From: Verrucomicrobiales bacterium
Lineage (GTDB): Bacteria; Verrucomicrobiota; Verrucomicrobiia; Methylacidiphilales; JAAUTS01
Length of the DNA: 64,000 nucleotides
Reading direction: 5' to 3'
Assembly (NCBI GenBank): GCA_031265105.1
Contig: JAISDC010000267.1
Location: forward strand, 6,448-70,447
The translations under genes were made by a program, and so were the position numbers. Below are positions 7,863-64,000 of this stretch, piece by piece (the stretch's first letter is position 1; every line of letters begins with the position of its first letter). The notes beneath the pieces are model-generated. The model worked only from the letters and a program-made list of their open reading frames with translations. It was not told the origin of the DNA and did no database searches.

Positions 7863-7890
7863 GTGTTCAGTTAACCACCAATGACTAAAA

Positions 7891-7978: not shown

Positions 7979-7988
7979 CTAATTTGCG

Positions 7989-8630: not shown

Positions 8631-8717
8631 ATAAATTCCAAATCACCATTTCCAACTACCAACTGCGGCTGTCGGCGCAGGTCGCCGGCTTCCTGCCGGA
8701 AGCAATTACGTCCATCA

Positions 8718-9233
8718 TCAGAAGTCCTCCAGTCTCATGGCAAAATCTATTTCGTGCCGGAGCGGTATCCCGTTCTGCCCGATATACGGTATGTCAGGCT
8801 TAAACGATTCCCGCTCCCGGTCTATCGCGCCCAAGTTCAAGCCGACCATGTCAAATCCGCGCTTTTGATAAAAGCCTATCGCGTTGATGTTGTCGTTCGA
8901 GGTCAACAGGCGCAGGATTGTACAACCGTTGGCAATGGCCGTCTGCTTTATATTATCAAGCAAAGCAGTACCAAGCCCGGTGCGTGGGCGTTCACTGTTG
9001 AGCGAAACAATTTCACAGGCATCACCGCGGATAATATAGGTCGCGAGTCCGATTACGTTTTCGCCGGATTCGTCCAACGCGATGAAGCCGGCGATTACGG
9101 CGCAGTCGATGATTTCGCTGCGAATCATTATTTGGGCGGTCTGCCACTTACGGGTGAGGTAAGTTGTCACAAGCTCGCGGGTCTCGGAGGTAATCGGCCT
9201 TATGCCGTGCGCGTTCGTCATATTGTAATTCAA
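8718..9233 (-). CDS. GNAT family N-acetyltransferase
   Basis: 171 aa with an acetyl-CoA-binding region (RPRTGLGTALLDNIKQTAIANG ... FYQKRGF). Visibly lower GC than the flanks. It lies between two copies of the bioD 5' end. Confidence 0.8.
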   Translation of the reverse strand: MNYNMTNAHGIRPITSETRELVTTYLTRKWQTAQIMIRSEIIDCAVIAGFIALDESGENVIGLATYIIRGDACEIVSLNSERPRTGLGTALLDNIKQTAIANGCTILRLLTSNDNINAIGFYQKRGFDMVGLNLGAIDRERESFKPDIPYIGQNGIPLRHEIDFAMRLEDF

Positions 9234-9449
9234 GCCTTTTCGATTCCCTATTTCAATCCTTGTAAATCCTGTTTCTCCGTGATTCCGGTTTTATCAGGTC
9301 GTGGCGGTACCCGTTCAAAGTCTTTGTCAAATCGTCCGGCGCATAAATCTCAAAATTTAAAATACCCGTCGCTGATGGCGCAGGTCAGCAACAGCGGCAA
9401 ATGGCGGCGCCTTGACAATTCACCGCGAATATATAATTCACACTAACAT

Positions 9450-9572
9450 GAAATCGGCTTCAACGCCCGCGCCGCGTTTCCGCGCCGCCGCAATTCCCGC
9501 ACCCACGCCGCCGTGACAAAGTTTTTCCAACGCCCGTGCCCGTGCCTGTGATGAAATTCCGCGCATATAAAT
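9450..9572 (-). pseudogene. Degenerate duplicate of the bioD 5' end (about codons 1-39 plus ~6 nt upstream)
   Basis: 9450..9572 aligns with 8512..8636 at ~80 % identity (by eye), including CCGCGCATATAAAT around the start codon. It is a direct repeat 938 bp from the functional copy. Confidence 0.8.
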
Positions 9573-9622
9573 CCCCAAAAGCCGTCAGCAACAACACTAT
9601 TCATGTGGCAAATCACACTGAC

Positions 9623-9650
9623 AAAAAACCCGTCGCTAACGACGGGTTTT
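9623..9650. terminator. Bidirectional rho-independent-type hairpin
   Basis: AAAAAA-CCCGTCG-CTAA-CGACGGG-TTTT: a 7-bp GC stem flanked by an A-run and a T-run. Confidence 0.5.
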
Positions 9651-9690
9651 GCGCTATAGCTTGGTTACGTTGCCCCAAAAGGCAAGAGGC

Positions 9691-9720
9691 TTGACCAAGC
9701 ATCACAGTTTTGAATATATT
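9691..9720 (+). promoter_or_regulatory. Candidate sigma70-type promoter for the Abi-like gene
   Basis: TTGACC (9691-9696), a 17-18 nt spacer, then ATATAT/TATATT (9714-9720), about 30 nt upstream of the ATG at 9750. Confidence 0.35.
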
Positions 9721-9749
9721 TCACGCGGCAGAACTGTCAAATATAAACT

Positions 9750-10421
9750 ATGGATTTCAATCAATTCCAAAAATTTTTTTCTGCGATGCGGGTTAATCGT
9801 TATTTGCAAGCCGTTCATGGCGAATCGGACGCCGCCATCAAATTATACCGAAACAATCTGAAAATCGCGCGCGCTTTTCATCCCTTGCTTGGCATTGTGG
9901 AAGTGGCATTACGCAACCGTCTCAATGATTTGCTGACGGTATATTTTCATGACGCGGACTGGATTATTAATCAGAAGAATGGATTCATGTCGGATTCGTC
10001 GTTAACCAACAGCTTTTTACGAGACGAGGTAACGCGAGCGGAAAAAAGATTAAAGCGTATGGGCGTGCCAGTAACGGCGGGAAAAATCATCGCTGAACAA
10101 TCATTCGGTTTTTGGTCGGATTTGTTCGCCAAATATCATTACCGGATTTTGCAAGGACGGGTCATCAAAGCATTTGTCAATCTGCCGCCAAACTGCGGGC
10201 GCAAGGAAGTCTATCGCAAGCTCGGGCAAATCAGAAAATTTCGCAACCGCATCAATCATAACGAACCGGTTTGTTTCAAAGGTGACACGGCGGATTTTAC
10301 TGAGGCACTGAAGGTGCATCAATCCATTGTCTGCATTTTGCAATGGCTGGGACCGGAATTATCTGAATTTGTCACGGGACTGGACGAAGTTCGGTATGAA
10401 ATTTCTAGCGCCGCGTCATAG
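9750..10421 (+). CDS. Abi-like protein (Abi_2 / AbiD-AbiF family)
   Basis: 223 aa. The N-terminal pattern (F..FS..R...YL.....D...A..LY..N..IA.AF...L..VEV.LRN) and C-terminal RNRINH-type helix match my recollection of PF07751 proteins. The surrounding island is low-GC. Confidence 0.7.
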   Translation: MDFNQFQKFFSAMRVNRYLQAVHGESDAAIKLYRNNLKIARAFHPLLGIVEVALRNRLNDLLTVYFHDADWIINQKNGFMSDSSLTNSFLRDEVTRAEKRLKRMGVPVTAGKIIAEQSFGFWSDLFAKYHYRILQGRVIKAFVNLPPNCGRKEVYRKLGQIRKFRNRINHNEPVCFKGDTADFTEALKVHQSIVCILQWLGPELSEFVTGLDEVRYEISSAAS

Positions 10422-10449
10422 CGATAAATAAAATTCAAATTTCAAAAAA

Positions 10450-10476
10450 CGCTGACGGTGAAACTCATCGTCAGCG
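10450..10476 (+). terminator. Hairpin formed by an inverted pair of the abundant motif (CGCTGACG-11 nt-CGTCAGCG)
   Basis: 8-bp stem located 29 nt after the Abi-like stop codon and preceded by an A-run. No strong T-tract follows, so terminator function is tentative. Confidence 0.35.
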
Positions 10477-10526
10477 AAGACTAACATTTTCTTGCTCACC
10501 ATCAGCGGCTGGCTATTCTTTGTTGC

Positions 10527-11180
10527 ATGAGCCGAAAATACAAAATATGGATTGTCGTTGGCGCCTGTCTCGTTGTCTTTTGCTATGGTGCGCTGATGCT
10601 CATGCTCGCTTTTGTCCAAAATGACGAAAAATTATCTTTTACCAACGGAGGCTCATCCGTGTTGCGTGTCCCTCGCTTTTGTAAGGTTAGCAGTCAAAAT
10701 TTCGTTTACGCGAATAATCATGTGACCGTCAGCGGTCAAGCTAACACCACCGCCCGCAATTTTATCCCACAGCTTCAGCCGTTATCTTTGAAATTCAACG
10801 AAATGAGATTGCGCGTGACCGATGCCCCCGCTGACGGTGAAGTGATTATTCGCTCTGATTTAAAACTAAGAAAATTCAACTTAAAGTTAAAAACTCTCGT
10901 GGGTGTGCGTTCTTGGCCGCAGCCATCAGCGACGCGCGACACCAAACTGCTCAGCGTCAGCGTGATCATGACGCCTGACGGCCTCCGATTAAACGACGTG
11001 CCATGCACACAGAATGAATTGCCGTCCAAGTTGAGCGAGCTTGCCGCAAAATATTCCAATTCACTCATGCTTAATTTTACCCTGGCGGGCGAGATTCAAT
11101 ACGGCGATTTTTTCAAGGTCTTGCAACAATGCCAAATCCCGGCGTTCGGCAATTTCAGAGTATCTGAACTTCGCCGCTGA
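10527..11180 (+). CDS. Hypothetical membrane-anchored protein (weak ExbD/TolR-like C-terminal region)
   Basis: 217 aa with one N-terminal TM helix (IWIVVGACLVVFCYGALMLMLAF). The tail (VIMTPDGLRLNDVPCTQNELPSKLSELA...GEIQYGDFFKVLQQC) loosely resembles ExbD periplasmic domains. Confidence 0.5.
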   Translation: MSRKYKIWIVVGACLVVFCYGALMLMLAFVQNDEKLSFTNGGSSVLRVPRFCKVSSQNFVYANNHVTVSGQANTTARNFIPQLQPLSLKFNEMRLRVTDAPADGEVIIRSDLKLRKFNLKLKTLVGVRSWPQPSATRDTKLLSVSVIMTPDGLRLNDVPCTQNELPSKLSELAAKYSNSLMLNFTLAGEIQYGDFFKVLQQCQIPAFGNFRVSELRR

Positions 11181-11296
11181 CAGTCACCGTTTTTGCTTTT
11201 TCGGACAGTCGCCCAATTAATTTCCCCAAGGTTAATCTCCGCCGTCAGCGGTGCCTCGCGATATGTGAATGGCAAATGACTCGACACCACCGGTCG

Positions 11297-11324
11297 TTGA
11301 CAGCATGGTCAGCGACATTATACT
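11297..11324 (+). promoter_or_regulatory. Candidate promoter giving a leaderless or near-leaderless lepB mRNA
   Basis: TTGACA (11297-11302), a 16-nt spacer, then TATACT (11319-11324). The ATG lies at 11331, only 6 nt past the -10 element. Confidence 0.35.
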
Positions 11325-11330
11325 TCGCTC

Positions 11331-11939
11331 ATGACCACGCCGCCGCCGCTGCCCGTCCCGTTCCCGCACCGTTGTTCAACCGAAGCGCTTTGGAAAAAAA
11401 CCGTCATTGGATTATGCCTGTTTTCAGCACTTATCGGCACGACACTTTTATTGTTGCGGCTTACCGGAGGGCTGCGCTGTTTCTTTGTGCCGACCAACAG
11501 TATGGCACCGGCGGTCGCTGCCGGTGACCATATCATCATGGACGGCGTTTCATTTTGGTTTCGCGAGCCTCGGCGCGGCGACATCGCCATTTTCAAGACC
11601 GGCGACATTCCCAGATGGCCGGATAATATTTTCGCCCAACGCATTGCCGGTTTGCCGGGTGATAAAATTAAAATCTCCGATGGCAATTTATTCATCAACG
11701 GCGCGCAAGTCTTTTTGTACAATCGCAACGGCAACATCATTTACACCCTGCCGGACCAACGGTCGGATGCCAGGTACCTTACCGAAACAACCGTGCCGCC
11801 GGACTGCTACTTCATGCTGGGCGACAATTCCGCAAACAGCTTCGACAGCCGTTACCGGGGCGTTGTCCCGCGCCGCGCCATCATGGGACGCGCTCTTTAT
11901 TGTTATTATCCGCTCGCCAGAACCGGCGTGATTCAATAA
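11331..11939 (+). CDS. lepB: Signal peptidase I
   Basis: 202 aa with S26 boxes: SMAPAV (catalytic Ser), GDHIIMD, RRGDIAIF, QRIAGLPGDKI and MLGDNSANSFDSRY. Confidence 0.85.
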   Translation: MTTPPPLPVPFPHRCSTEALWKKTVIGLCLFSALIGTTLLLLRLTGGLRCFFVPTNSMAPAVAAGDHIIMDGVSFWFREPRRGDIAIFKTGDIPRWPDNIFAQRIAGLPGDKIKISDGNLFINGAQVFLYNRNGNIIYTLPDQRSDARYLTETTVPPDCYFMLGDNSANSFDSRYRGVVPRRAIMGRALYCYYPLARTGVIQ

Positions 11940-12043
11940 GCGACGACAGCCACAACGTCATCATGACCGACATTTTATTCATCAATTCCCATCCACAAAT
12001 TAATGCTCGCCAAAAATCCGCGCACATCCGCGTAATCTGCGGA

Positions 12044-13411
12044 TTAATTCACAACCTCTTCGATCCCCTTGCACAACGCGCTGACCATGACGTCAACTTC
12101 AGCGGGCGTCGTCGTGTACGGCGGCATCAACAGCAACACATCACGCCCAGCCGGGCGCGTGAGCAGGCCGTGTTTTTTCGCCGCCTCGCACACGCGCGCG
12201 CCGACGCGCAGCGACGGGTCAAACGGCTCGCGCGTGGAAAAATCCTTCACCAATTCGATTGCCAGAATACAGCCCTCCTGCCGCACGTCGCCGACCGCTG
12301 GCAGTGACCAAAATTTTTCATGCGCCGCTGTCAACGCCGCTGCCAATCGCCGCTGACGGTCGGCGCAATTGTCGCTTTGCAAAATATCCAACGTCGCCAG
12401 CGCCGCCGCGCAACCGAGTTGGTTGCCGGTGTAACTGTGACCGTGGAAAAATGTCCGCGTCGCGTCGCCGCGAAAACCGTCAAAAATTTTCTCTGTCAGC
12501 AACGTCACCGCCAGCGGCAGATAACCACCGGTGAGCGCCTTCGCCAGCGCAACCAAATCCGGCGCGACCTGTTCTTTTTGCCACGCGAATATCGCGCCCG
12601 TGCGTCCGAAGCCGGTCATCACTTCGTCGAGAATCACCAGCGCGCCGTGCCGTTGCGCGATGGCGCAGGTTTCCGCCAGATAATTGTCCGGATGCATGAT
12701 GAAGCCCGCCGCCCCTTGCACGCGCGGCTCGACGACCCACGCCGCCGCGCGCGCACCGTCAGCGGCGAATTTTTTCTCCACCGCTGCGATACACTCGCGC
12801 CCGCACCGCGCGTAAGCGCGCGCGTCAGCGCGTTGCGGCGCGGCTTGGTTGAACGGGCAGCGGTAGCAATACGGCACCGGCACCTCGTCCGACTCGAACA
12901 GCATGTTTCTATAACAATGATGAAACAACTTGCTATGCCCGACGCTCATCGCGCCGACCGTGTCCCCGTGATACCCCGCTGACAGTGACACGAATTTTTT
13001 CCGTTGCGGCTCGCCGTTCTGCGCGAAAAACTGATACGTGATTTTCAACGCCGCCTCAATCGCCGTCGCCCCGTCGTCGGAAAAAAAGCAGCGCGTGAGC
13101 CGGTCATCGTCAGCGAGTTCGACCAGCCGTTTCCCCAACACCGGCGCGAGTTCATTGGTCAGCCCAAGGAACGACGAATGAGCAATCCGGTCAAGCTGCG
13201 CCCTAATCGCCCCGCTGACCGTGGCGTTGCGATGCCCGTGAATATTCGTCCAAATGGAAGAATTGCCGTCGAGATATTTATTCCCCTGGTCGTCGCACAA
13301 CCACGACCCGTCCCCGCTGACAATGACCGTCGGCGCATAATCCGCTGCCAGCCAGGCATCCGTCAGCGTGAACGGATGCCACAAATATTTTTTATCCAGC
13401 GCGGCGGGCAT
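12044..13411 (-). CDS. bioA: Adenosylmethionine-8-amino-7-oxononanoate aminotransferase
   Basis: Class-III PLP aminotransferase (YLWHPFT, GNSSIWTNIHGH, SAGYHGDT, ILDEVMTGFGRTG). The start was moved from 13465 to MPAALDKKYLW (13411) because the first 18 ORF codons are REP-A sequence. Confidence 0.9.
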   Translation of the reverse strand: MPAALDKKYLWHPFTLTDAWLAADYAPTVIVSGDGSWLCDDQGNKYLDGNSSIWTNIHGHRNATVSGAIRAQLDRIAHSSFLGLTNELAPVLGKRLVELADDDRLTRCFFSDDGATAIEAALKITYQFFAQNGEPQRKKFVSLSAGYHGDTVGAMSVGHSKLFHHCYRNMLFESDEVPVPYCYRCPFNQAAPQRADARAYARCGRECIAAVEKKFAADGARAAAWVVEPRVQGAAGFIMHPDNYLAETCAIAQRHGALVILDEVMTGFGRTGAIFAWQKEQVAPDLVALAKALTGGYLPLAVTLLTEKIFDGFRGDATRTFFHGHSYTGNQLGCAAALATLDILQSDNCADRQRRLAAALTAAHEKFWSLPAVGDVRQEGCILAIELVKDFSTREPFDPSLRVGARVCEAAKKHGLLTRPAGRDVLLLMPPYTTTPAEVDVMVSALCKGIEEVVN

Positions 13412-13414
13412 CGG

Positions 13415-13452
13415 AAAATTTAACCACAGATTTACACAGATGGACACCGATA
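13415..13452. repeat. REP-A half element (TTAACCACAGATTTACACAGATGGACACCGAT)
   Basis: Member of the GTGTYCATCCGTGTCCATCCGTGGTTAAAA family seen at eight sites in the window. Confidence 0.75.
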
Positions 13453-13526
13453 GTTTGATTTTCAATATTTACAGATAGGAGCCATATAGTGTGTTATCGT
13501 CAGCGTCAGGGCTAGGGCGGCAGGCG

Positions 13527-14386
13527 TTAAAATATGTGTCCCGTATTTTTTTCAATCAGTTGGTCGTCGCGGTAATCGAAGCCGAATGATTTGTGTCCGT
13601 TCGTGGAAACAAAGACATACGTACCGAAATTTTCCCTCACGCCTATCATGATCGCCCAAGTGTCAAATTCGTCGGTGCCGAGCACGACCGCTGGCAAATC
13701 GGCGAATTTTTGCGTGCCGTCGCTGATGAAACGCTCGCCTAGTCGCAGCGCTTGCCAGTCCGCTTCGCTACGGATGACTTGCCATTTGCCGGATCGTTCT
13801 TTTACTGTCAGCGTGCCATAGACCGCGCGCTGCGCATCCCGCCGGTGCCGAGCGTTTCATAACGCGGCGGTCAAAAATATACAGCCGCTGCGGACCACGG
13901 TCAGCGCTTCGTTTGCCGAGTCGGGTTTCGTCAAGCACATCTTCCAGTGCGGCGCGCGCGGTGTCGTCTTTCAGCGCGTCCAGCCCGTTCCGCGTAATCG
14001 CTCACTTGTGTTGCCCATTTGTCAAACTCATCCGTGCCGGCCACCACGGTCTGCGGGCCGAGTTTTTCCCGCCGTTCGCCGGAGACCAATTCCGCCCATT
14101 GGACTTCTGATTTTATCATTTTCCACTGACCGTCATTTTTACTCGTGGTCAGTGTGCCGCTGATGGTGGCGGTCATGCCGGCGTCGGCGGTTTTCTTCAC
14201 CACGCGACGGTCGAGCACGCTGTCCTTGATGTCGCTGGCTTCGTTCAATAACAAACAGTTTTCCAACAGCCGAGCCTGCAACTGGCGGCGGTCTTGCACC
14301 GTCAGGCGTTCGTAGCGTAACGAAAGGATGTCGTCATTTGGCGGGCGGATTAGCGGCCTGACTTTTCGGCCCGGCGGTGTTACCAT
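13527..14386 (-). pseudogene. Hypothetical two-module protein gene disrupted by two +1 frameshifts
   Basis: Three consecutive frames each carry part of a coherent product. Two similar modules are present (GTLTTSKNDGQWKMIKSEVQWAELVSGERREKLGPQTVVAGTDEFDKWA and GTLTVKERSGKWQVIRSEADWQALRLGERFISDGTQKFADLPAVVLGTDEFDTWA). The last segment has no start codon of its own. Confidence 0.45.
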
Positions 14387-14392
14387 CAGCGC

Positions 14393-15286
14393 GTGAAAAT
14401 CCTGACTCCCGGCGACTGGCCGGATTACGAATTGATTGACAGCGGCGGCGGCGAGAAGCTGGAGCGGTTCGGCGCCCGCGTGTTGCGGCGGCCGGAGCCG
14501 AAGGCGGTGTGGGCGCGGTCGCTGCCGGCGGACGAGTGGCGGCGGCTGGCGGACACGACGTTCACGGCGGGCGTCGGCCTCGGCCAGCCGGGGCGGGAGG
14601 ACCGCGGGACGTGGCGCGCGGACGGCGGGCGGCGCGAGCGGTGGTCGGTGCGCTTCCAGTATCAGCGGCTGGATTTGCGCCTGCGGCTGGGGCTGACCGC
14701 GTTCAAGCACGTCGGCGTGTTTCCCGAACAGGCGCCGAACTGGCGGTGGATTTATGACACGACGCGGTCGCTGCCGGTGACCGCGCCGCGGGTGCTGAAC
14801 TTGTTCGCCTACACGGGCGGCGCGTCACTGGCGGCGCGCGCGGCGGGGGCAGCGGTGACGCATGTGGACTCGGTGCGGCAAGTCGTGACCTGGGCGCGGG
14901 AGAACATGACGGCGTCGGGGCTGACGGACATCCGCTGGATTGTGGACGACGCACTGAAGTTCGCGCAACGCGAGGCGCGGCGCGGCAGTGTGTATCACGG
15001 CATCCTGCTCGACCCGCCCGCCTACGGCCACGGCGTTGACGGTCAGCGGTGGAAGCTGGACGAGAATATTTTGGAGTTGCTGCAAACGTGCCGCGCAATC
15101 CTGGCGCCGCGCGACAGTTTCCTGTTGTTGAACTTGTACTCCAACGGCTTCTCCGCGCTGGTGGCGGACACGCTGACGCAGACGGTCTTTGGTCCCGCCC
15201 GCGAGCGCGAGTGCGGGGAGCTGGCGCTGACTGACCGTTTCAACAAGCGTCTGCCGCTGAGTGTGTTTTCGCGGGTGCGATTATAG
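14393..15286 (+). CDS. Class I SAM-dependent methyltransferase (COG1092 / RlmI-like)
   Basis: 297 aa with a GTG start. Motifs include DYELIDSGGGEKLERFG, the SAM-binding VLNLFAYTGGASLAAA, and LLDPPAYG. Confidence 0.8.
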   Translation: MKILTPGDWPDYELIDSGGGEKLERFGARVLRRPEPKAVWARSLPADEWRRLADTTFTAGVGLGQPGREDRGTWRADGGRRERWSVRFQYQRLDLRLRLGLTAFKHVGVFPEQAPNWRWIYDTTRSLPVTAPRVLNLFAYTGGASLAARAAGAAVTHVDSVRQVVTWARENMTASGLTDIRWIVDDALKFAQREARRGSVYHGILLDPPAYGHGVDGQRWKLDENILELLQTCRAILAPRDSFLLLNLYSNGFSALVADTLTQTVFGPARERECGELALTDRFNKRLPLSVFSRVRL

Positions 15287-15343: not shown

Positions 15344-15547
15344 TTAGGCAACCGGTTTTCTTTTATTGCGAAAACAAAGAATGGCGATGATGAGTCCAAT
15401 GGCTATGGCGACCAGATGTGCCATATATACGGTAACAGTATAATCTCCCGCGGTTTCACCACTGATTAGCTTGGACAGCAAGGCAATTAGGTGTGCAAGA
15501 GCGAATAACGCGGCAAGTGAGCCGATAACATAACGGAGGATTTTCAT
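15344..15547 (-). CDS. Small hypothetical membrane protein (2 TM helices)
   Basis: 67 aa (GSLAALFALAHLIALL ... LVAIAIGLIIAILCF). It sits in a ~345-bp low-GC insert between duplicated methyltransferase 3' ends. Confidence 0.45.
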   Translation of the reverse strand: MKILRYVIGSLAALFALAHLIALLSKLISGETAGDYTVTVYMAHLVAIAIGLIIAILCFRNKRKPVA

Positions 15548-15625
15548 GCTTCATCATGATTTATGGAGAGATTGAGAATTTGTCAAATTTATTTTAAGGA
15601 ATCACCCTGACCGGGCAATTGGCAC

Positions 15626-15774
15626 TTCAACGGTTTTCCGCACTGGCGGCCGACACGCTGACGCTGACCGTCTTCGGTCCCGCCCGCGAGCGCGAGTGCG
15701 GGGAGTTGGCGCTGACCGACCGTTTCAACAAGCGTCTGCCGCTGAGTGTGTTTTCACGGGTGAAGTTCGCGTAA
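15626..15774 (+). pseudogene. Duplicate of the methyltransferase 3' end (last ~45 codons plus an alternative stop)
   Basis: 15626..15762 aligns with 15140..15277 at ~88 % (by eye). It ends ...SRVKFA-TAA, versus ...SRVRL-TAG in the intact gene. Confidence 0.8.
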
Positions 15775-39068: not shown

Positions 39069-41174
39069 TTAGAACTGGTGACGGTAGCCCGCGGTCAGGC
39101 CCCAGGGTTTGTCGTACTTGTTGCCGAAGGAGGCTTCGTAGTCCAAGTGCAACTGATTGTTGGTGTCGAGTTGCCAGATGAGGCCGGCGCCGAGTTCGGC
39201 TCTGGCACCGTCAGTGTTAGCGCGGGTGGATTGATAGCCGTTTCTGATGGCGCCACCGCTGCTGATGGTTTCGACGCCGCTGATCTTGATATAGGGTTGT
39301 AACGCGCCGCTGTTGGTGAGTTTAATGGTTCTGCCAAACAAGCTACCGATGCGGAGTTGCAGGGCGTCGAGGTCTTGGGCGCTGATGGTCAAGGGAGCGG
39401 CGCTGTAATTCTCGGCGAGGATGTGGAGGTAGTTTACTTGGAGTTGTGGCTCGATGAACCAGTCATCGGTGAAGGTGAATTTGTTGCCAATCTCAATGCT
39501 GCCACCGATATTCACGTCGCTGTAGTTGGCTTTGAGTTGGGTGGTGCCGTAAGGGGCTTTCAGGTTGTTGTTGACACTGGCAGCCTTGAAAGTGGCATCT
39601 ATATAGAAGCCGCTGGAGTGGAGCCAAGTGGCGTAGAGGCCGCCGTAGTAGCTGTTGAGTTCACCGTCAGTGCCGGGGGTGCGGTAGTCGAGGTCGCTGC
39701 GACCATAGCCGGCATACACTCCAAGATACAAGTCACTGTCAGCGCTGATGGTGAACTTGTGATCCGTGCCGAGATCGACGCCGTAGATGAGTTGTTCGTA
39801 GGCTTTGCCTGCTACTTGGCTGCCGACGTTTAATTGTTGGCCGTAGCTTCTGAGCCAGAGGTTGTCGATGAGGTTATGGAACGCGGGCGTCTCGCCCGCC
39901 AGCGGGCGGGACGCCCGCGCTCCATAGCGCAGTTCACCCATGCGTTTGAGCAAACTGTTTTGCTGCGCGAACCACATGGCTTGTTGGATGGCCACGCTGC
40001 TGTTGAGGACGGCGCCGGCGGGGCTGGTACCGTTTTTCACGAAGTAGTCGCCGTCTTTGATGACGGTGTCGATGCCCCAGTCGATGGGATCCCACTGCCA
40101 GTGCTCCGTGCCCTCGCCGCTGACGATGCCGGGCAGTACGTCGTTGGGATTGAGTTGGCCGTTGCCGGTGGTGTCGCTGTGGACTTTGCCTTCACCGTCA
40201 GCGGTATCGGTTATGTGGATGGAGCCACCCTCGCCGGTGTCGCTGTTGACGTTGATGTTGATGGTGCCGGTGTGGGTCAGGTTGTCGAAGATGACTTCGT
40301 AGTCGCCGATGTTCCACACGCCGTGGTTCTCGCCGTAGTTGCCGTGGCTGTTTTTGTTGAAGGTCCACGCGCTGTCCTCGCCGGTGATGAGGTTGCCGCC
40401 GGCGAAGCCGCCGCTGCCGATGGCGCCGGTGTCAAGGATGACGGTGATGGTGCTGTCGTCGTGTTGCGCGATGTCGCCGGTGAAGCTGCTGCCGGGGCCG
40501 CTGACGGTGACATCGATGGTGGCGGTGCCGCTGGCGGTGAGGTCACCGATGATGCCGCTATTTTTGCCATTGATGGTTAGGGAACCATCGTTGGTGTTAG
40601 CGCTGTTACCGGTCAGATTGGTGTCGTCCAAATTAATGGTAATATTTCCGTGACCGTTATTAACCACATCGCCGATGATGCCGCTGCCGTTGTTGACATT
40701 GACGGTCATGTCGCCTTGCGCGCCACTGCCAGCGGTGAGACCGCCAGCTTGCGTGGCGTCCGCGTGGTCCAGTGTCAGCGTGACGGTGCCGCCGGTGGTG
40801 ACTTCATCATTAATCAGGCCGTTGGTTATTAATCTGGCGCCATCACTGACGGTCACGTGCATCGTGTTGGCGCTGCCGTTGCCGTTGGTTGAGGTGTTAA
40901 TCAGCGGCGTATTGGGCGCGTCAATCGTGCCGCCGATGATTTCCACAGTTTTGACGCCATTGCGACCGACCACGGTGAAAATACCGGCCGCCGTGTCGGT
41001 TTCTATCGTGGGATTTTCCAAATGCAGCAACGCATTGCCACCGTCAGCGAAACGTACCGCATAGTCGGTGCCGCGATAGATGATACGTGTGTTGCTGCCC
41101 GTCACGGTTCCGCCCGCACCGGTATAACCAATCACCCGTAACCTCGATGAATCAATCGTGGCGCCGGTACCCAA
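39069..41174 (-). CDS. Autotransporter paralog 2, C-terminal 701 aa (passenger repeats + beta-barrel); lacks its own signal peptide
   Basis: The last ~470 aa are ~90 % identical (by eye) to paralog 1. The ORF begins at a TTG inside a 7-nt tandem duplication and continues the upstream ORF 41152..41946 if one repeat unit is removed. Confidence 0.8.
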   Translation of the reverse strand: MGTGATIDSSRLRVIGYTGAGGTVTGSNTRIIYRGTDYAVRFADGGNALLHLENPTIETDTAAGIFTVVGRNGVKTVEIIGGTIDAPNTPLINTSTNGNGSANTMHVTVSDGARLITNGLINDEVTTGGTVTLTLDHADATQAGGLTAGSGAQGDMTVNVNNGSGIIGDVVNNGHGNITINLDDTNLTGNSANTNDGSLTINGKNSGIIGDLTASGTATIDVTVSGPGSSFTGDIAQHDDSTITVILDTGAIGSGGFAGGNLITGEDSAWTFNKNSHGNYGENHGVWNIGDYEVIFDNLTHTGTININVNSDTGEGGSIHITDTADGEGKVHSDTTGNGQLNPNDVLPGIVSGEGTEHWQWDPIDWGIDTVIKDGDYFVKNGTSPAGAVLNSSVAIQQAMWFAQQNSLLKRMGELRYGARASRPLAGETPAFHNLIDNLWLRSYGQQLNVGSQVAGKAYEQLIYGVDLGTDHKFTISADSDLYLGVYAGYGRSDLDYRTPGTDGELNSYYGGLYATWLHSSGFYIDATFKAASVNNNLKAPYGTTQLKANYSDVNIGGSIEIGNKFTFTDDWFIEPQLQVNYLHILAENYSAAPLTISAQDLDALQLRIGSLFGRTIKLTNSGALQPYIKISGVETISSGGAIRNGYQSTRANTDGARAELGAGLIWQLDTNNQLHLDYEASFGNKYDKPWGLTAGYRHQF
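39876..39925. repeat. REP-C palindrome in frame in autotransporter 2
   Basis: ATGGAACGCGGGCGTCTCGCCCGCCAGCGGGCGGGACGCCCGCGCTCCAT. Confidence 0.8.
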
Positions 41175-51609: not shown

Positions 51610-51816
51610 TTATATACAAAATATAACAAATATATTTAAAAACCACATGAAAAGTCAAACTATGGAGAAATTGGAGGCGGGCCTTTGGTTGCATCAAACC
51701 TTGGCTTAATTAACAAGGGGTTTGCCTGGTTCAGCGGGGTTTGATTGTTTGCAAACGCATACAAAAGAGCCTTTGTCTCGCTGATGGTGAGTGGCATTAT
51801 CAGCGGGATAAAAATT

Positions 51817-52662
51817 ATGGCACCGGAAACCGCAATCAAGTTGTTTGAAACGAAAAAAGTCCGCACCGTGTGGGACGAGGAACGGGAAAAATGGTTTTTT
51901 TCCGTCGTGGATGTCATCGAGGCGCTGACGGCGAGCGGGCGTCCCCGTAAATATTGGGACGACTTGAAACGCAAGCTGCAAGCCGAAGGAAGTGAGTTGT
52001 CCGAAAAAATCGGACAACTGAAAATGCCCGCTGCCGATGACAAATTTTACAAAACTGATGTCGCTGACGTTGAGCAAGTGTTCCGGTTGATTCAATCCAT
52101 CCCGTCACCAAAAGCGGAGCCGTTCAAGCTGTGGCTGGCGCAAGTGGCGAAGGAGCGGCTCGACCAGTTGCAAGACCCGGAGTTATCCATCGAGCAAGCC
52201 ATGACCGATTACCGGCGACTGGGTTATTCCGAAAGCTGGATCAATCAACGCCTCAAAAGCATCGAAATCCGCAAGGAGTTGACCGATGAATGGAAGCGCC
52301 ACGGCTTGCAGGAAGGCGGGCCATTCGCCTCGCTGACCGACATCATCTACCAAACTTGGGCGGGCAAAACCGCGAAGGAATACAAGCAATTCAAAGGCTT
52401 GAAAAAGGAAAGTTTGCGCGACAATATGACCAACAAGGAATTGGTAATCAATATGTTGGCGGAATTATCCACCAAGGAAATCTCCGCCGTCTCCACGCCC
52501 GCGACGATGGCTGAACATGAAAACATCGCCCGGCGCGGCGGCAACGTCGCCCGTGAAGCGCGGTTGAAACTTGAAGCCGAGACTGGCAAAAAAGTGGTCA
52601 CACCGCTGAATGCGAAACATTTGTTGGGCGTTAAAAATGAATCACGCAAATTAACCCGCTGA
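51817..52662 (+). CDS. BRO-N domain protein (DinD/antirepressor-like)
   Basis: A start at MAPETAIKLFE is preferred. The Bro-N pattern is FETKKVRTVWDEEREKWFFSVVDVIEAL. The stop TGA lies inside a motif variant. Confidence 0.65.
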   Translation: MAPETAIKLFETKKVRTVWDEEREKWFFSVVDVIEALTASGRPRKYWDDLKRKLQAEGSELSEKIGQLKMPAADDKFYKTDVADVEQVFRLIQSIPSPKAEPFKLWLAQVAKERLDQLQDPELSIEQAMTDYRRLGYSESWINQRLKSIEIRKELTDEWKRHGLQEGGPFASLTDIIYQTWAGKTAKEYKQFKGLKKESLRDNMTNKELVINMLAELSTKEISAVSTPATMAEHENIARRGGNVAREARLKLEAETGKKVVTPLNAKHLLGVKNESRKLTR

Positions 52663-58201: not shown

Positions 58202-59335
58202 ATGGCGGCCATGTCTTCCCTCGAACACGAGTTGCGCGCGCGGCTGGCCGCTGATGCCGAAGCGCGGCTGGAACGCGCGCTGACGGTGACGCCGGAGTCA
58301 CTGGTGTCGTTCGCGGACAACGACTATCTCGGTTTGGCGCGGCATCCGCTGCTAGTGGACGCCGCCGTCAGCGCCCTGCGCGAAGGTCGCGTCGGCGGCG
58401 GGGCGGCGCGGCTCATCAGCGGGAATTTTTCCCACCATCAGCGGCTGGAGGAGCGGCTCGCGGTATTCAAGAACAGTGCGGCGGCGCTGGTGTTCCCGAC
58501 GGGTTACGCGGTGCCGTGCGGCGTCATTCCGGCGCTGATGATGAAGCCGGATTTTGTCGTGCTCGACAAACTCTGCCACGCCGCGCTGTTCGACGGCGCG
58601 AAATTATCCGGCGCGCGCCGCGTGATTTTTCAACACAACGACGCCAATCACCTCGCGGAAATTCTGACGGAAATTCGCTCGCGCAGCGCGGCGGCGAAAA
58701 TCCTTGTCGTGGTCGAGTCGGTGTACTCAATGGACGGCGACCTCGCGCCGCTGACGGTGATTTGCGATTTGAAGGATAAATTCGGCGCGTGGCTGATGGT
58801 GGACGAGGCGCACGCGACCGGCGTGTTCGGCGCTGACGGTCAGGGCTTGTGCGCGCAACGCGGCGTCGCGTCGCGCGTGGAAATCCAAATGGGCACGCTC
58901 GGCAAGGCGCTCGGTGTCAGCGGCGGCTACGTCGCGTGCGCGCTGACGGTGAGACAATATCTCCTGCAACACGCCCGTTCCTTCATTTTCACCACCGCGC
59001 CGCCGCCGTGCCTCGCCGCCGCGTTGACCGTGGCGCTGGACATCGTCAGCGGCGCCGAGGGAAAATGCCTGCGGCAAAAGTTGTGGGATAATATCGCCTT
59101 GCTCAACACGCTGACATTGAACCGTACCAACCCCGCTAGCCCTATCATCCCGCTGATACTCGGCGCGGCGGACGCGGCGCTGTCAGCGTCAGCGCGCCTG
59201 CGCGCCGCCGGTTTGTTTGTCCCCGCCGTGCGTTACCCCACCGTCCCCCGTCACGCCGCCCGCCTGCGCGTCACCCTCAGCGCAAGACATACGCGGGAGC
59301 AGATAGAGTTGCTGGCAAAAAACCTGCTGATATAG
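58202..59335 (+). CDS. bioF: 8-amino-7-oxononanoate synthase
   Basis: 377 aa alpha-oxoamine synthase with FADNDYLGL, VESVYSMDGD, DEAHATGVFG and the PLP lysine in GTLGKALG. Confidence 0.9.
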   Translation: MAAMSSLEHELRARLAADAEARLERALTVTPESLVSFADNDYLGLARHPLLVDAAVSALREGRVGGGAARLISGNFSHHQRLEERLAVFKNSAAALVFPTGYAVPCGVIPALMMKPDFVVLDKLCHAALFDGAKLSGARRVIFQHNDANHLAEILTEIRSRSAAAKILVVVESVYSMDGDLAPLTVICDLKDKFGAWLMVDEAHATGVFGADGQGLCAQRGVASRVEIQMGTLGKALGVSGGYVACALTVRQYLLQHARSFIFTTAPPPCLAAALTVALDIVSGAEGKCLRQKLWDNIALLNTLTLNRTNPASPIIPLILGAADAALSASARLRAAGLFVPAVRYPTVPRHAARLRVTLSARHTREQIELLAKNLLI

Positions 59336-59920: not shown

Positions 59921-60134
59921 AAAAATCAAAAGAACTTGCGTAAGTTAGGCGGATAAGATACCATCTCATCCTGTTATCGGCGCAAGCTGGCACTGGCCAC
60001 CAAAAAAACATGGGTGGTTAAGCAAAGGCAAAAAACTGGTAACTCGCTGAAGATGACCGAGATAGCCCATAGAATCGAATCATCGCGCTCACGCGCTCAC
60101 GCGCTCACGCGCTCACGCGCTCACGCGCTCACGC
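59921..60134 (+). repeat. Element E copy 2: ~163-bp conserved module plus (CGCGCTCA)x6.4
   Basis: Inverted homolog of 4937..5180. It lies 371 nt upstream of the low-GC operon starting at 60506. Confidence 0.75.
60084..60134. repeat. 8-bp tandem repeat (CGCGCTCA), 6 full units plus CGC
   Basis: Counted directly. The unit is the same as at 4937..5024 but the copy number differs. Confidence 0.95.
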
Positions 60135-60505
60135 CTGAGCCGGATAGTTTTTGCCAAAAATATTCCTGATACGGTTCAACCGCGTCACTGGACTCCCAAG
60201 TCAGCCTGTTTTGCCCCGATGTCACATGGCATTGGGTTAATACCGCCTGTCGTAAAATCAGCGCCCGACCCAATGGAACATCAGCGTCAGCCTGTTCCAG
60301 GAGCTGTGAACACAAACGAGAACACCAGCATAGTACCGGCAATTCCACTGATAATGGGACAGGAGCTAATAAAGTAACCAAGCCTTGCCCAAGTAACTTT
60401 AGATTTTTTTGAGCATGAAAATTTCAAAGAATGTCACTATCAGCGATGAGTTGTCGCCCTTGGTGATGATTCCTTGGAAAAACAAATAATATAGAAAGGT
60501 AAATT

Positions 60506-61024
60506 ATGAAAGAATCACTAAATAAAATATATGAATCAGAACTCAAGGTTTTTATTATAACACTTATCCAGAGTTCACAACTATTTAGGTCACTTGGAGC
60601 AAAGAGAAAAAAATTATCTGAATTGGCTAAAAAAGAACTGAAAAGAAAATTACTAGATTTCAGTATTGAATTAATAAAAGAAGCTGATAGTGGAACATTG
60701 AAAAATAGTAAAATTCACAAAAAAATAGAAGAGCTGACTAAAATTAACAAATTGATTTCCTTTGGTCGAGCGCAAAAGGCATTGAATATTGTTTTGAAAT
60801 CTTATTGCATCATTACCCGGAAAAAACAGGGAATTTTGCGAGAATTGGATTGCCCTCTTGATAGCAGAACAATGAAACACTGTGGGATTCCTGAAAATAG
60901 ATTACTTGATGTCGAAAAAAATGATTATTTGTGCTATCAGAAAAAATTTGAAGAAGAGGAATTGAGAATATTTGAAGACTATAAAGCTTATAATGAGAAC
61001 AGAATCAATAAATTTATAAAATGA
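60506..61024 (+). CDS. Hypothetical Lys/Glu-rich protein (low GC)
   Basis: 172 aa preceded by AAAGG 8 nt upstream. It contains an FGRAQKALNIVLKSY ... LDCPLDS block that I cannot assign to a named family. Confidence 0.5.
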   Translation: MKESLNKIYESELKVFIITLIQSSQLFRSLGAKRKKLSELAKKELKRKLLDFSIELIKEADSGTLKNSKIHKKIEELTKINKLISFGRAQKALNIVLKSYCIITRKKQGILRELDCPLDSRTMKHCGIPENRLLDVEKNDYLCYQKKFEEEELRIFEDYKAYNENRINKFIK

Positions 61025-61752
61025 TAAAAAATCAAAATTTGTTGCTAACAATGATAGTCATTGTCAGCTGTAAGTCAATATTTATGAAGGCAATATTACT
61101 AATAACCTTACTGGCGGTAACAACTTCATTTGCGGTCGTTCAAACCAAAAACAATGAAATTAAAAAACCTGTCTTGGACAAGAACAAGATATCTACATGG
61201 AGACAAGTGACGCTTGCGGATGGAACGGTTGAGAAGTGGGACACGATTTACTCCATCAAACCATACGGTATCGGTGTTGGTGGGACAAATGGTGTCAAAA
61301 CCATCTATTTCAAGAGCTTACCAGAAAAGCTCCAAAAGGAAATAGGATACAATTCAGCTATTGTGGCCCCTACAATCCCTGACGTCGATATTAAGCCAAT
61401 CAAGTCTTACGATAATGATATTACGCGGCTTGCTGATATTGAAAAGAAGTTAGAGGCGTTGCGGGAAACAAATACCTTGATAGGAATCCGACTTCTGGAA
61501 CTTGGTTCAGGCCGCACCTCTATTGGGGACTCGTATGGCACAACGAGTAATGGGGAGTCGTACGTCATAACGAGTCGTCGTCGCCGTGGTTCTTCCCAGC
61601 CCTTGATGGAGCGTATTGAGGCTCTTGAGAAAGACAAAGAGACGCATGAACTTTTGAATGCTAAAAGGGCGAATGATGAGACTGCAAGGCTATTGTGGTT
61701 TGAGAAAAACAATATCCTAAAACGGAAAGCCAAGCTCGCAGATAACCCCTAA
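61021..61752 (+). CDS. Hypothetical secreted/coiled-coil protein (low GC)
   Basis: 243 aa with an ATGA overlap with the previous gene. The signal-like segment is MKAILLITLLAVTTSFA (alternative start 61084). The C-terminal half is coiled-coil-like. Confidence 0.5.
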   Translation: MIKNQNLLLTMIVIVSCKSIFMKAILLITLLAVTTSFAVVQTKNNEIKKPVLDKNKISTWRQVTLADGTVEKWDTIYSIKPYGIGVGGTNGVKTIYFKSLPEKLQKEIGYNSAIVAPTIPDVDIKPIKSYDNDITRLADIEKKLEALRETNTLIGIRLLELGSGRTSIGDSYGTTSNGESYVITSRRRRGSSQPLMERIEALEKDKETHELLNAKRANDETARLLWFEKNNILKRKAKLADNP

Positions 61753-61873
61753 ACAATGCCAGTATCGGTATCGCTCTTGTTGAGATTTTCTATAAGAGCT
61801 TTGGTAAGAGTAACTTTTACACACGTCAAAGTTTCCAACGAAACCCCACTGCTGGTTGGTCAGTTTATCAAAC

Positions 61874-61972
61874 CATCAGTGTCCATCTGTGTTAATCCGT
61901 GGTTAAAATTTTCAATGCCTTCTGCGCTGGATAAAACACATTCACGCCGACGGATGTCTGGCTGTCAGCGGT
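61874..61972 (+). pseudogene. bioA 5' fragment 1: REP-A half element plus the first ~57 nt of bioA with an ~11-nt deletion
   Basis: It aligns with the reverse complement of 13340..13452. Homology stops at GGCTGTCAGCGG, which also contains the MNT gene stop codon. Confidence 0.75.
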
Positions 61973-62267
61973 GGAAAAAATCCATGCTTTTTTCGTCAAT
62001 GTGTTGGCGCAGATTTTGATTGGTGATTTGGTTGTAAACGACCAAGTCCACTGCCATTGGCAGCGCGTGTTCTTCCAGCGCCACGCGCAGTTTCGCCAGG
62101 TCGCTGATGGTGAGCTGCTCGCCGAACAGGGCGAGGTCAATGTCCGAGGCGGGTTGAAACACGCCCAGAGCGCGCGAGCCGAACAGCACGGCGCGGGTGA
62201 CTCGCGGGTGCGCCGACAACACGCTGACGATGGCGGCGCGCTGGCGTTCTGACAGGCCGTCATTCAT
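61965..62267 (-). CDS. Nucleotidyltransferase-domain protein (MNT-type antitoxin)
   Basis: 100 aa with the motifs LFGSRALG and ASDIDLALFG. It overlaps the HEPN gene by 4 nt. Confidence 0.8.
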   Translation of the reverse strand: MNDGLSERQRAAIVSVLSAHPRVTRAVLFGSRALGVFQPASDIDLALFGEQLTISDLAKLRVALEEHALPMAVDLVVYNQITNQNLRQHIDEKSMDFFHR

Positions 62268-62665
62268 GCCGCCGTCAATGCGTTAAGCCGGTCAACGCAT
62301 CCGTCAAGCAGCGGCGCGTACTTATTCTTAATCAAATTTAGCGCTTGCCGACTGATGGCGTCATCGTAAGTGTGCGTAAATAAATTACGGCTCTCCAGCG
62401 CTTCCAGCCATGTCTCGCCGTCAGTGACCATGCCCGCCTGAAACGCTTGCCGAATGGTCTCGCGTGGGCTGTTGACCTGATAACCGTCGAAGAGCAATTT
62501 GTCGCGTAGCGTCTTCCAACATAGCTCAAACGTGAATTCGTAAGTTTGCACCAGCCCGGCGATTTCCAACTCGCTGTAATTGGTTTGCGCGCAAGCCGCC
62601 ACCAGACGCGCGCGGGCTTTGTTCAAGTTTTCGAGGCGCTGCCGCCAGCGGTCGGGATTTTGCAT
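62264..62665 (-). CDS. HEPN-domain protein, HI0074 family (nucleotidyltransferase substrate-binding protein; toxin of HEPN-MNT pair)
   Basis: The Rx4H motif is ESRNLFTHTYD. The ATG at 62665 is preferred because GGAGA lies 8 nt upstream. The ORF track starts at the GTG at 62680. Confidence 0.8.
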   Translation of the reverse strand: MQNPDRWRQRLENLNKARARLVAACAQTNYSELEIAGLVQTYEFTFELCWKTLRDKLLFDGYQVNSPRETIRQAFQAGMVTDGETWLEALESRNLFTHTYDDAISRQALNLIKNKYAPLLDGCVDRLNALTAA

Positions 62666-62750
62666 GGCATAATTCTCCACATTTCACCGTCAGCGTCAAC
62701 GGCGTGTTTTTCAGATGTTCATGATAGTTGGTTGCGGCTAGATTTTTTGC

Positions 62751-62973
62751 ATGTTTGCCGCGCTGGACAAAAAATATTTGTGGCATCCGTTCACGCCGAC
62801 AGATGCTTGGCTGGCGGCGGATTATGCGCCGACGGTCATTGTCAGCGGGGACGGGTCGTGGTTGTGCGACGACAAGGGGAATAAATATCTCGACGGGAAT
62901 TCTTCCATTTGGACGAATATTCACGGGCATCGCAATGCCACTGTCAGCGGGGTATCACGGGGACACGGTCAGC
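62751..62973 (+). pseudogene. bioA 5' fragment 2: nt 1-~188 of bioA (~94 % identity) joined to 18 nt from bioA codons ~146-151
   Basis: MFAALDKKYLWHPFTPTDAWLAADYAPTVIVSGDGSWLCDDKGNKYLDGNSSIWTNIHGHRNATVSG, followed in another frame by SAGYHGDTV. It is inverted relative to the intact bioA at 12044..13411. Confidence 0.85.
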
Positions 62974-63198
62974 TTTAACGCGCTGATGGAATTGCGGGAA
63001 GATTTGTACAGCTACGCCGGTGTGCTGGAAAGTTTCGAGCGCGCCGGGCGACTGTTCCCGATGGCGGCTCACTAATCCGCCCGCGCGGGTGACCGGCTGC
63101 CGTCACTCGACGAAAGCTGTTCGTCACCCCGTTTTTATCAACTTAAACCCAATATAAAACCTCAACCAAAAGGAACCCCGATGTCCATGCGGCTTATT

Positions 63199-63363: not shown

Positions 63364-64000
63364 TCAGAGCAACTCCCGCGCCACCGCCGCCGAGTACTTG
63401 CTGGCGATGCCTGCCACGAAGGCGGGGAAATCCACCGGCGACTGCTCATCGGCCGCGTCGCTGATGGTGCGGATGACGGTGCACGGGACGCCGTGCTCGT
63501 GGCACACTTGCGCGACCGCCGCGCCCTCCATCTCCACGCACAACACCGACGGCAACGCCAGCGTCAGCGCCACCTTGTCGGCGTGGCGGGAGAAAAATTG
63601 GTCGCCGCTGGCGATGTCGCCGACGTGCAGGCGCGGTTTGGTGATGCCGAACTTTCGCAACTCACCATCAGCGGCCAGCCGCCCGCTGCCGATGAGTTTC
63701 TCAACCGCGTCAATCGCGCGCCGCAACCGCGCGGGCGGGGTCTCCAGCCAGGTCCGGCCCAGTAACGGGATTTCGTAGCGCGGGACGAGCGGGCGCGCGT
63801 CGAGGTCGTGTTGCACCAGGCGCCGCGCCAGCACGATGTCGCCGATGGCCAGCGCGTCGCTGACCGCGCCCGCGACACCGGTGAAAATGATTTCCGTCAC
63901 GCCGAACTCCAGCAGCAGCGTCGCGGCGGTGGCGGCGGCGGCCACCTTGCCCCAGCGCGAAAACACCACCACGACGCGCCGCCCGCCGACGCTGCCGGTG
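63364..64000 (-). CDS. mtnN: 5'-methylthioadenosine/S-adenosylhomocysteine nucleosidase (5' end beyond window)
   Basis: FTGVAGA, GDIASGDQF and CVEMEGAAVAQVC motifs. The reading frame remains open to the window edge. Confidence 0.85.
   Translation of the reverse strand, partial: TGSVGGRRVVVVFSRWGKVAAAATAATLLLEFGVTEIIFTGVAGAVSDALAIGDIVLARRLVQHDLDARPLVPRYEIPLLGRTWLETPPARLRRAIDAVEKLIGSGRLAADGELRKFGITKPRLHVGDIASGDQFFSRHADKVALTLALPSVLCVEMEGAAVAQVCHEHGVPCTVIRTISDAADEQSPVDFPAFVAGIASKYSAAVARELL

Follow-up and report, generated by a model that had tools for sequence, protein, structure and literature searches.

We analysed a stretch of 64,000 nucleotides from a Verrucomicrobiales bacterium (contig JAISDC010000267.1; the whole stretch is called the window here), near one end of which a small HEPN-MNT toxin-antitoxin pair lies between two fragments, f1 and f2, of the start of bioA. 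A preliminary description of this DNA had recorded the pair between two such fragments, with the functional bioA 49 kb away on the other strand and with f1 including the REP element that precedes the real gene. Alignments of f1 and f2 to bioA bear out these placements. The features of the locus and of its distant partner are as follows.

61867-61972, plus strand: f1, consisting of a REP element (61873-61912) and the decayed original 5' end of bioA (ATG at 61915)
61965-62267, minus strand: MNT gene, encoding an MntA-like nucleotidyltransferase antitoxin of 100 amino acids
62264-62665, minus strand: HEPN gene, encoding a HepT-like toxin of the HI0074 family, 133 amino acids counted from the ATG
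62666-62750, strand not applicable: divergent intergenic region between HEPN and f2
62751-62973, plus strand: f2, a truncated bioA start of the F type (ATGTTT...), annotated as a hypothetical protein of 75 amino acids in the source metagenome-assembled genome (MAG)
12044-13411, minus strand: intact bioA, start ATGCCC, 455 amino acids (PF00202, 1.6e-89)
13420-13459, minus strand: REP element ahead of the intact bioA

The two fragments differ in how much of bioA they retain. From 61867 to 61971, f1 aligns with the upstream region and start of the intact gene (13459-13342) at 76% across 118 columns, with one 13-nucleotide gap. REP elements form a family with at least 12 copies within the window; the part of f1 outside the REP (61913-61972) by itself scores 32.5 against nucleotides 1-112 of bioA, a value that none of 19,487 random window segments reached (mean 8.1, standard deviation 1.5, maximum 16). 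Relative to the 98-nucleotide copy of the sister strain L002, which is described below, f1 has a deletion of 13 nucleotides and probably a further one of 28, and its last seven nucleotides (TCAGCGG) overlap the MNT stop codon. In f2, positions 62757-62952 match 13405-13210 (nucleotides 7-202 of bioA) at 95.4%, and positions 62936-62973 match 12990-12953 at 94.7%; f2 is nucleotides 1-202 of bioA fused at the microhomology GTCAGCGGGG to nucleotides 427-460, an internal deletion that is absent from the preliminary description. Past its end, at nucleotide 460, the sequence is unrelated to bioA. Because the bioA coordinates that the fragments cover overlap (about -48 to +70 for f1, about -7 to +202 for f2), they are direct repeats and not a single fragment split by insertion, a possibility that the preliminary description had itself raised. 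A Logan contig from a separate assembly (L001, SRR14710921) is 100% identical to 61789-62846.

Judged from the sequences, the pair is a toxin-antitoxin system of the HepT/MntA type. The HEPN protein has matches to PF08780 (8.8e-33) and to TIGR01987 (86.7 bits, above the cutoff of 55.8); its RX4HXY motif reads RNLFTHTY, and R93, H98 and Y100 are invariant across 29 homologues. The MNT protein exceeds the cutoffs for PF18765 (53.5 bits) and PF01909, and its GSX10DXD motif is intact (GSRALGVFQPASDID). These two motifs, together with small overlapping genes (four nucleotides, 62264-62267), are what the pair shares with the type VII HepT/MntA systems (Shewanella SO_3165/3166; HI0073/HI0074). It departs from them in the order of the genes, here HEPN and then MNT, and in the score on the NCBIfam MntA equivalog NF047752, which is 44.3 bits and under the cutoff of 60. 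HEPN and MNT are also paired at 77 of 80 homologous loci. MntA is described as adenylylating HepT and so blocking its RNase activity (PMC7641770), and by analogy the same control would be expected for the present pair. A promoter-like site for HEPN (62699-62672) lies within the intergenic region 62666-62750, as does the degenerate REP-like leader (REP') that precedes the F-type bioA start (ATGTTT). Among 5.8 billion proteins, the HEPN protein has a sole close relative, 95% identical, on L002, and the next relatives of the cassette are L093 (71%) and L094 (67%). As a toxin-antitoxin pair it is unremarkable, one more member of the most abundant family of its kind; the interest lies in its packaging.

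The contig L002, 8.5 kb from the JGI and about 95% identical to the window, comes from a sister strain in which the same cassette is still attached to an intact bioA. L002 is colinear with window positions 7549-8642 and 9452-13405 at 95-96%, with the shared order bioD, an Abi_2-like gene, a gene for a protein of 217 amino acids, an S26 peptidase gene and bioA. In L002 the start of the full-length bioA leads directly, across the same 85-nucleotide leader, into HEPN-MNT (95.6% identity to window 62952-61965), and after the MNT stop there is a second bioA start of 98 nucleotides with a REP of its own (91% to window 13314-13427). The two L002 starts form direct repeats (4838-4929 and 5715-5806, 88%), one of which is joined to the intact target gene, whereas in the window the inner copy ends at nucleotide 460. 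MNT and the outer bioA copy meet at a junction (...TCAGCGG followed by TGGAAAAAATC) that is identical in the window and L002, and in both the seven nucleotides TCAGCGG serve as the MNT stop region and recur as nucleotides 92-98 of bioA. Beyond the outer copy, L002 continues with two strain-specific AT-rich genes and then with a match to window 60506-59972; a Logan contig of another run (L003) is an exact copy of the L002 cassette region. Since the same cassette and the same junction of MNT with f1 occur in L002, the insertion is old, was present in the common ancestor and has been inherited. The identity of the cassette to L002 (95.6%) is about the genome-wide level, which argues for vertical inheritance. 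The movement of a cargo in this genome, as envisaged in the preliminary description, is thus replaced by inheritance of cassette and junction alike.

To place the two loci relative to each other, the following neighbours are needed.

58202-59335, plus strand: bioF (Aminotran_1_2), ancestrally next to bioA on its upstream side
63364-64000, minus strand: Pfs-like nucleosidase gene (PNP_UDP_1), cut by the end of the window
14393-15286, plus strand: rRNA methyltransferase gene, adjoining the start of the intact minus-strand bioA
14341-14404, plus strand: leader and first codons of the methyltransferase gene, paired with 62975-63084
62975-63084, minus strand: second copy of that leader and those codons, inverted and in part diverged, which marks one of the inversion junctions

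In the relatives L004 and L007, bioF, bioA and bioD follow one another in one direction, and in the more distant relative L010 the order is ThiD, Pfs, methyltransferase, with Pfs directly upstream of the methyltransferase gene. In the window, about 2.5 kb of variable DNA separates bioF from f1, the cassette and f2, beyond which Pfs lies on the opposite strand. The presence of bioF just upstream, taken with the adjacencies seen in the relatives, indicates that the locus at 59-63 kb is the ancestral site of bioA. The preliminary description had spoken of a displaced bioA 5' end, but the fragments sit where bioA ancestrally stood, after bioF, and what moved was the intact gene. By synteny, the arrangement of the window is exactly the product of a single inversion of about 13460-62973. 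The uninverted junction is found in the sibling MAG L092, where the reverse complement of 63244-63091 lies about 80 nucleotides upstream of window position 14340; the methyltransferase region of L092 has 96% nucleotide identity to the window, and homology to sibling strains starts at about 14340.

The order of segments fits L-a-rc(b)-rc(M)-rc(a)-b-R (rc, reverse complement), the pattern expected when an inversion duplicates both of its breakpoint regions. At the breakpoint in the bioA 5' region the inverted arms are 13210-13418 and 62744-62952 (209 nucleotides, 93% complementary). At the methyltransferase side, the 13-mer GCGGGCGGATTAG is found a single time on each strand of the window, at 14341 (plus) and 63072 (minus), and so is the 12-mer CCATCAGCGCGT, at 14383 (plus) and 62978 (minus); any homology beyond these two words is marginal and is not claimed, as scores equal to that observed arose in 79 and in 34 shuffles, out of 2000 each. 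The joint of f2 with the inverted leader copy has a GAC microhomology. Of the two fragments, f1 dates from the insertion of the cassette, and f2 is most likely a truncated remnant left by the inversion.

The alleles of the bioA start agree with two fragments of separate origin. At one diagnostic site f1 and f2 read CACGCCGAC where the intact bioA of the window reads CACGCTGAC, just as the preliminary description had stated, but its conclusion that both fragments derive from a common, non-resident allele does not follow. The C at this site also occurs in the bioA of L002, in the L002 counterpart of f1 and in the relatives L004 and L007 (the third outgroup, L006, is without this segment), and the T is found solely in the intact bioA of the window; the C is ancestral and the T private to that gene. 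A start of ATGCC(C/T) (MP..., the P type) is found in the intact bioA of the window, the outer copy of L002, f1 of the window, L004 and L006, and the more distant L007 begins with ATGACT (MT...). The start ATGTTT (MF..., the F type) is shared by f2 and the intact bioA of L002, and both also carry a derived T at nucleotide 186. Divergence amounts to four private substitutions in 202 nucleotides for f2, and to 15-22% plus deletions for f1. With f1 a decayed P-type start with its REP, and f2 a nearly intact F-type start with a degenerate REP, the two fragments represent different alleles of very different age.

We consider it probable that HEPN-MNT was inserted into the native bioA 5' end in an ancestor shared with L002, and that a 49-kb inversion later took the intact bioA away. 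The locus is an old insertion-duplication with a later rearrangement, not a fresh transposition. In this history the insertion would have duplicated the REP and nucleotides 1-98 of bioA; the outer copy, f1, would be the old start, severed from bioA and decaying, and the inner copy would have remained attached to bioA and kept it functional, as in L002. From the structure, which is observed, we infer that homologous recombination would be the most likely source of the order gene end, cargo, gene end. One route would be a Campbell-type single crossover of a small circle carrying the cassette and a patch of the bioA start, with the circle closed (or a first illegitimate join made) at the 7-nucleotide microhomology TCAGCGG. 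Another would be the import of an already duplicated module, with both gene-end copies acting as homology arms. The inversion, with breakpoints in the bioA 5' region and the methyltransferase leader, then parted the intact bioA-bioD block from the cassette and left f2, the F-type start cut at nucleotide 460, beside it. In E. coli, duplications of 109-950 bp arose when circles with a fragment of a gene end integrated by single crossover (PMC3240628). No Pfam match to a recombinase was found among the open reading frames (ORFs) scanned, namely the larger ones at 51.7-59.3 kb and four between 59.4 and 64 kb.

Several observations weigh against this history. The intact bioA keeps the ancestral P-type start and an intact REP, and f2 and L002 share the derived second codon TTT and the T at nucleotide 186. 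Two identical bioA starts would be expected from a simple duplicative inversion, so an extra step is needed, which could be a later allele replacement or gene conversion of the 5' end of the intact bioA, or an incoming donor fragment. Divergence from L002, followed in sliding steps along bioA, gave no clear recombination breakpoint, with 8 differences per 100 nucleotides in the first 200 nucleotides compared with 6% overall. At one junction, 880 nucleotides (13460-14339, from the REP to the methyltransferase leader) are unmatched in any fetched locus. The two bioA-start copies of L002 diverge by 14%, which could be plain decay of f1 and not a foreign patch. L002, at 8.5 kb, stops short of bioF and Pfs, and every sequence used is a metagenome assembly. 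Neither a circular form, nor a strain within the species with an empty bioA site, nor a donor allele was found; a conserved 25-mer of the bioA start had no hits in a collection of metagenome contigs that does not include the relevant samples, which left the second junction of the L002 strain unrecovered; and literature searches for a described natural mechanism gave experimental and analogous systems only. Other orders of events were also considered, in which a third bioA fragment already lay between Pfs and the methyltransferase gene, or the whole f1-toxin-antitoxin-f2 unit was imported there and recombined; these are conceivable but less economical than an inversion that duplicates both of its breakpoints.

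Three further explanations would dispense with part or all of this history. The cassette might have travelled here with two patches of the bioA start from one foreign allele, independently of the resident gene, and the overlap of f1 and f2 in bioA coordinates around a cargo, as well as the C that both carry at the diagnostic site, are what such an origin would leave; the derived states of f2 also match the bioA of L002 and not the resident gene, so that import of the entire f1-toxin-antitoxin-f2 unit from an L002-like donor would be possible. We nonetheless regard this as quite unlikely, given that the fragments occupy the ancestral bioA position after bioF, that the C is itself ancestral, that f1 (P-type, with REP, decayed) and f2 (F-type, nearly intact) are not copies of one allele, that the identity of the cassette to L002 equals the genome-wide level, and that f2 ends at the inverted copy of the methyltransferase leader, as expected of an inversion breakpoint. 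Alternatively, the cassette could have entered by homology-facilitated illegitimate recombination of a linear donor, with one end in bioA and the other at TCAGCGG in the recipient bioA start. Seamless homology on one side and a GC-rich microhomology of seven nucleotides on the other agree with such an event, for which microhomologies of 3-10 bp are typical; however, this process typically deletes recipient DNA, roughly of the size of the insert, whereas here recipient DNA is duplicated, and the duplications obtained in E. coli came from single crossovers of circles (PMC3240628). Three cases within one window (two of them described below), each with duplications of 98-140 nucleotides, point moreover to a process that depends on homology length, and we think a linear donor unlikely.

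It is also conceivable that the contig is a chimera, joined during assembly at the bioA-start repeats of co-occurring strains. The sequence comes from a metagenome bin, sister samples contain co-occurring strains of about 95% identity, and Logan contigs break inside the repeats. On the other hand, no two of the three bioA-start copies are alike in sequence, a single coherent inversion with matching inverted duplications accounts for two separate junctions, L001 is exact over 61789-62846, and the microhomologies at the junctions (3-14 nucleotides) are probably shorter than the k-mers that assemblers typically use. An artefact of this kind is very improbable. An old insertion at bioA followed by an inversion is the history that we favour. 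The main value of the bioA case is corrective: what looked like a displaced cargo carrying captured patches is an old insertion in situ whose host gene was later carried away.

The packaging of HEPN-MNT is not the only instance of its kind in the window, since three small cargos within these 64 kb each lie within duplications of 98-140 nucleotides of the end of a housekeeping gene. The genes carried in the other two cases are the following.

8718-9233, minus strand: GNAT acetyltransferase gene, the cargo of the bioD case
about 15344-15547, minus strand: AT-rich ORF for a predicted membrane protein of 67 amino acids, the cargo of the methyltransferase case

In the bioD case the start of bioD is duplicated (8509-8642 and 9447-9578, 134 nucleotides, 83.6%) around a 0.8-kb insert; the outer copy has two 1-nucleotide frameshifts and adjoins the native upstream sequence, and L002 962-1095 is the corresponding empty site. 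Both copies are 90.3% identical to L002, the empty-site strain, as against 94.3% for the gene body, and this excess of divergence is not significant. With both copies at the same distance from L002, capture of the patch from another strain is no more than a possibility. In the methyltransferase case the last 140 nucleotides of the gene are duplicated (15138-15277 and 15624-15762, 91.4%), with 347 nucleotides between the copies. The contigs of the sibling MAGs L091 and L092 both terminate inside this rRNA methyltransferase gene.

The preliminary description had proposed a search of other genomes of the clade for cargos bracketed by duplicated gene ends, and related HEPN-MNT loci do show the pattern. 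A scan that reached past the clade, in which aligned HEPN homologues were run against the GTDB species representatives, gave 80 loci. Direct repeats flank the pair in 12 of the 71 testable loci, compared with 2 of 53 shifted control windows. At four of the twelve (Vibrionaceae and Thalassotalea) the repeats form arrays which, read from their spacing and the taxonomy, look like integron attC arrays. Outside those four, a short-range direct repeat of 60-400 nucleotides occurs in 10 of 76 loci and brackets the toxin-antitoxin pair in seven of the ten. Gene-end packaging surrounds about 10% of related HEPN-MNT pairs, with examples in Akkermansia, Omnitrophota, Myxococcota and other groups. It is absent from L093 (71%) and L094 (67%), the next-closest relatives of the cassette, which have no flanking repeats; packaging is therefore frequent in the family and neither universal nor constant. 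The bracketed loci that we consider individually are these.

L025 5780-7052 and L027 5780-7082: Akkermansia, species representatives
L054 5815-5878 and 6716-6779: the two repeats, with the pair lying between apparent hsdM and hsdS genes
L035 5882-5960 and 6776-6854: Omnitrophota, the two repeats

The two Akkermansia species repeat 186-216 nucleotides of the 3' end of a gene for 403 amino acids after the pair, at 98-99%; from its sequence, by eye, we take this gene to encode a SufS-like cysteine desulfurase. Most of the flank is 63-89% identical between the two species; along the 3' half of the gene, the cassette and the second repeat the identity climbs to 96-99%, and immediately past that repeat it vanishes. 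This gradient looks like a recent import across species by homologous recombination, in which the duplicated gene end acted as the far homology arm. At L054 the last 60 or so nucleotides of hsdM (...KLEKAI.NLKG.GY) are repeated after the pair in diverged form, as seen by manual alignment only; the label hsdM was assigned by eye from this C-terminal motif. At L035 a 79-nucleotide repeat (85%) stands on both sides and encodes a similar C-terminal peptide, with no intact hsdM adjoining the repeat. In the Myxococcota locus the 3' end of the neighbouring gene is repeated. As to the wider proposal of the preliminary description, a recurrent movement of cargos without a recombinase, the recurrence of the pattern stands (bioD, methyltransferase and other phyla, with one suggestive transfer in Akkermansia), and the mechanism is reached by inference.

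We rate the general pattern as a variant of known recombination-driven cassette behaviour. It is closest in form to Campbell-type insertion-duplication, in which a cargo comes to lie between direct repeats of the target end, one of them contiguous with the intact gene, as in L002; the ORFs scanned here include no recombinase gene, and the duplication of 98-146 nucleotides here was called within the range of 109-950 bp (PMC3240628). Such insertions are known mainly from engineered plasmids, whereas here they would, by analogy, be a natural route for chromosomal cassettes of about 1 kb. The displacement cassettes of polymorphic toxins likewise consist of a gene body, a new end, a small cargo and a displaced old end with a short homology patch, and the tpsA/tpsC, CdiA-CT and Rhs orphan modules are exchanged by homologous recombination or single crossover, possibly via circular intermediates (PMC3848433). 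There, however, the toxin tips of one gene are swapped, and here the end of a housekeeping gene is duplicated around an unrelated cargo.

Integron cassettes, such as those of the Vibrionaceae superintegrons, are also small, promoter-poor cargos, often toxin-antitoxin pairs, between repeats of about 60-130 nucleotides, but the repeats that flank the present cassette are bioA sequence and not attC; the locus has no array of repeat units, and no integrase match was found among the ORFs scanned. Integrative elements that target gene ends offer a further comparison. For e14 and phage 21 in icd, and for islands that target tRNA genes, the incoming DNA supplies a nearly identical gene end and the old end becomes a flanking direct repeat; elements of the e14/phage 21 type are kilobases long and encode or borrow a tyrosine or serine integrase. 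They share with our locus a target gene that is kept intact, and differ from it in that the cargo here is about 0.8 kb, with no recombinase among the ORFs scanned at 51.7-64 kb. Features of insertion sequences, transposons or islands are not apparent either, as no terminal inverted repeats lie at the cassette ends among the 25 longest inverted repeats listed, and the duplication is at least 98 nucleotides.

We tentatively raise, as a possibility about which we remain doubtful, that duplicated gene ends act as portable homology arms, through which a bracketed cassette enters any genome that has the gene via RecA, with no dedicated recombinase. Entry would proceed by double crossover, or by excision to a circle and re-entry by single crossover, whatever lies beyond the gene. 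Toxin-antitoxin addiction would counter-select deletion of the cassette between the repeats, and the extra copies of gene ends would provide ectopic homology able to seed large rearrangements, such as the 49-kb inversion. Were this route general, it would account for the spread of tiny defence or addiction modules from strain to strain without mobility genes; transfer would depend on RecA and the patch, insertion would occur solely at the cognate gene, and the cassettes would be linked to chromosomal inversions.

The surroundings of the bio genes and of the methyltransferase gene have been rearranged in other ways as well. Between bioA and bioD, at 9750-11939, lie the genes for the Abi_2-like protein, the protein of 217 amino acids and the S26 signal peptidase, in opposite orientation and of lower GC content. 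As bioA and bioD are adjacent in L004 and L007, the insertions between them mark the bio operon of this lineage as an insertion hotspot. Three sibling strains whose methyltransferase genes are 96-97% identical differ in what lies upstream of that gene: the window has bioA there, L091 a cluster with an ECF sigma factor and L092 a gene for a 4HBT thioesterase. The spot upstream of the methyltransferase gene is a rearrangement hotspot. The 880-nucleotide stretch at 13460-14339 holds two diverged copies of a small ORF fragment with the motif ...GTDEFD.WA.... Between bioF and f1 there is an AT-rich island (60135-61866; 38-42% GC against about 60%) with two genes that have no Pfam hits; its counterpart in L002 (5830-7430) holds different genes, remotely similar at the protein level only.

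A tandem array of an octamer, (TGAGCGCG)n, with a conserved flank of about 100 nucleotides occurs at 4921-5110 and, inverted, at 59972-60134 (86%), and the array is also present in L002 at 7818-7992 (90%); in the uninverted genome the two arrays of the window would become direct repeats around the whole bio region. An ORF with a BRO-N domain, which is phage-associated, lies at 51745-52662, about 6 kb upstream of bioF. Finally, a direct repeat of 1.5 kb (2228-3718 and 39069-40559, 85.7%, 35 kb apart) probably represents paralogous genes for large surface or repeat proteins.

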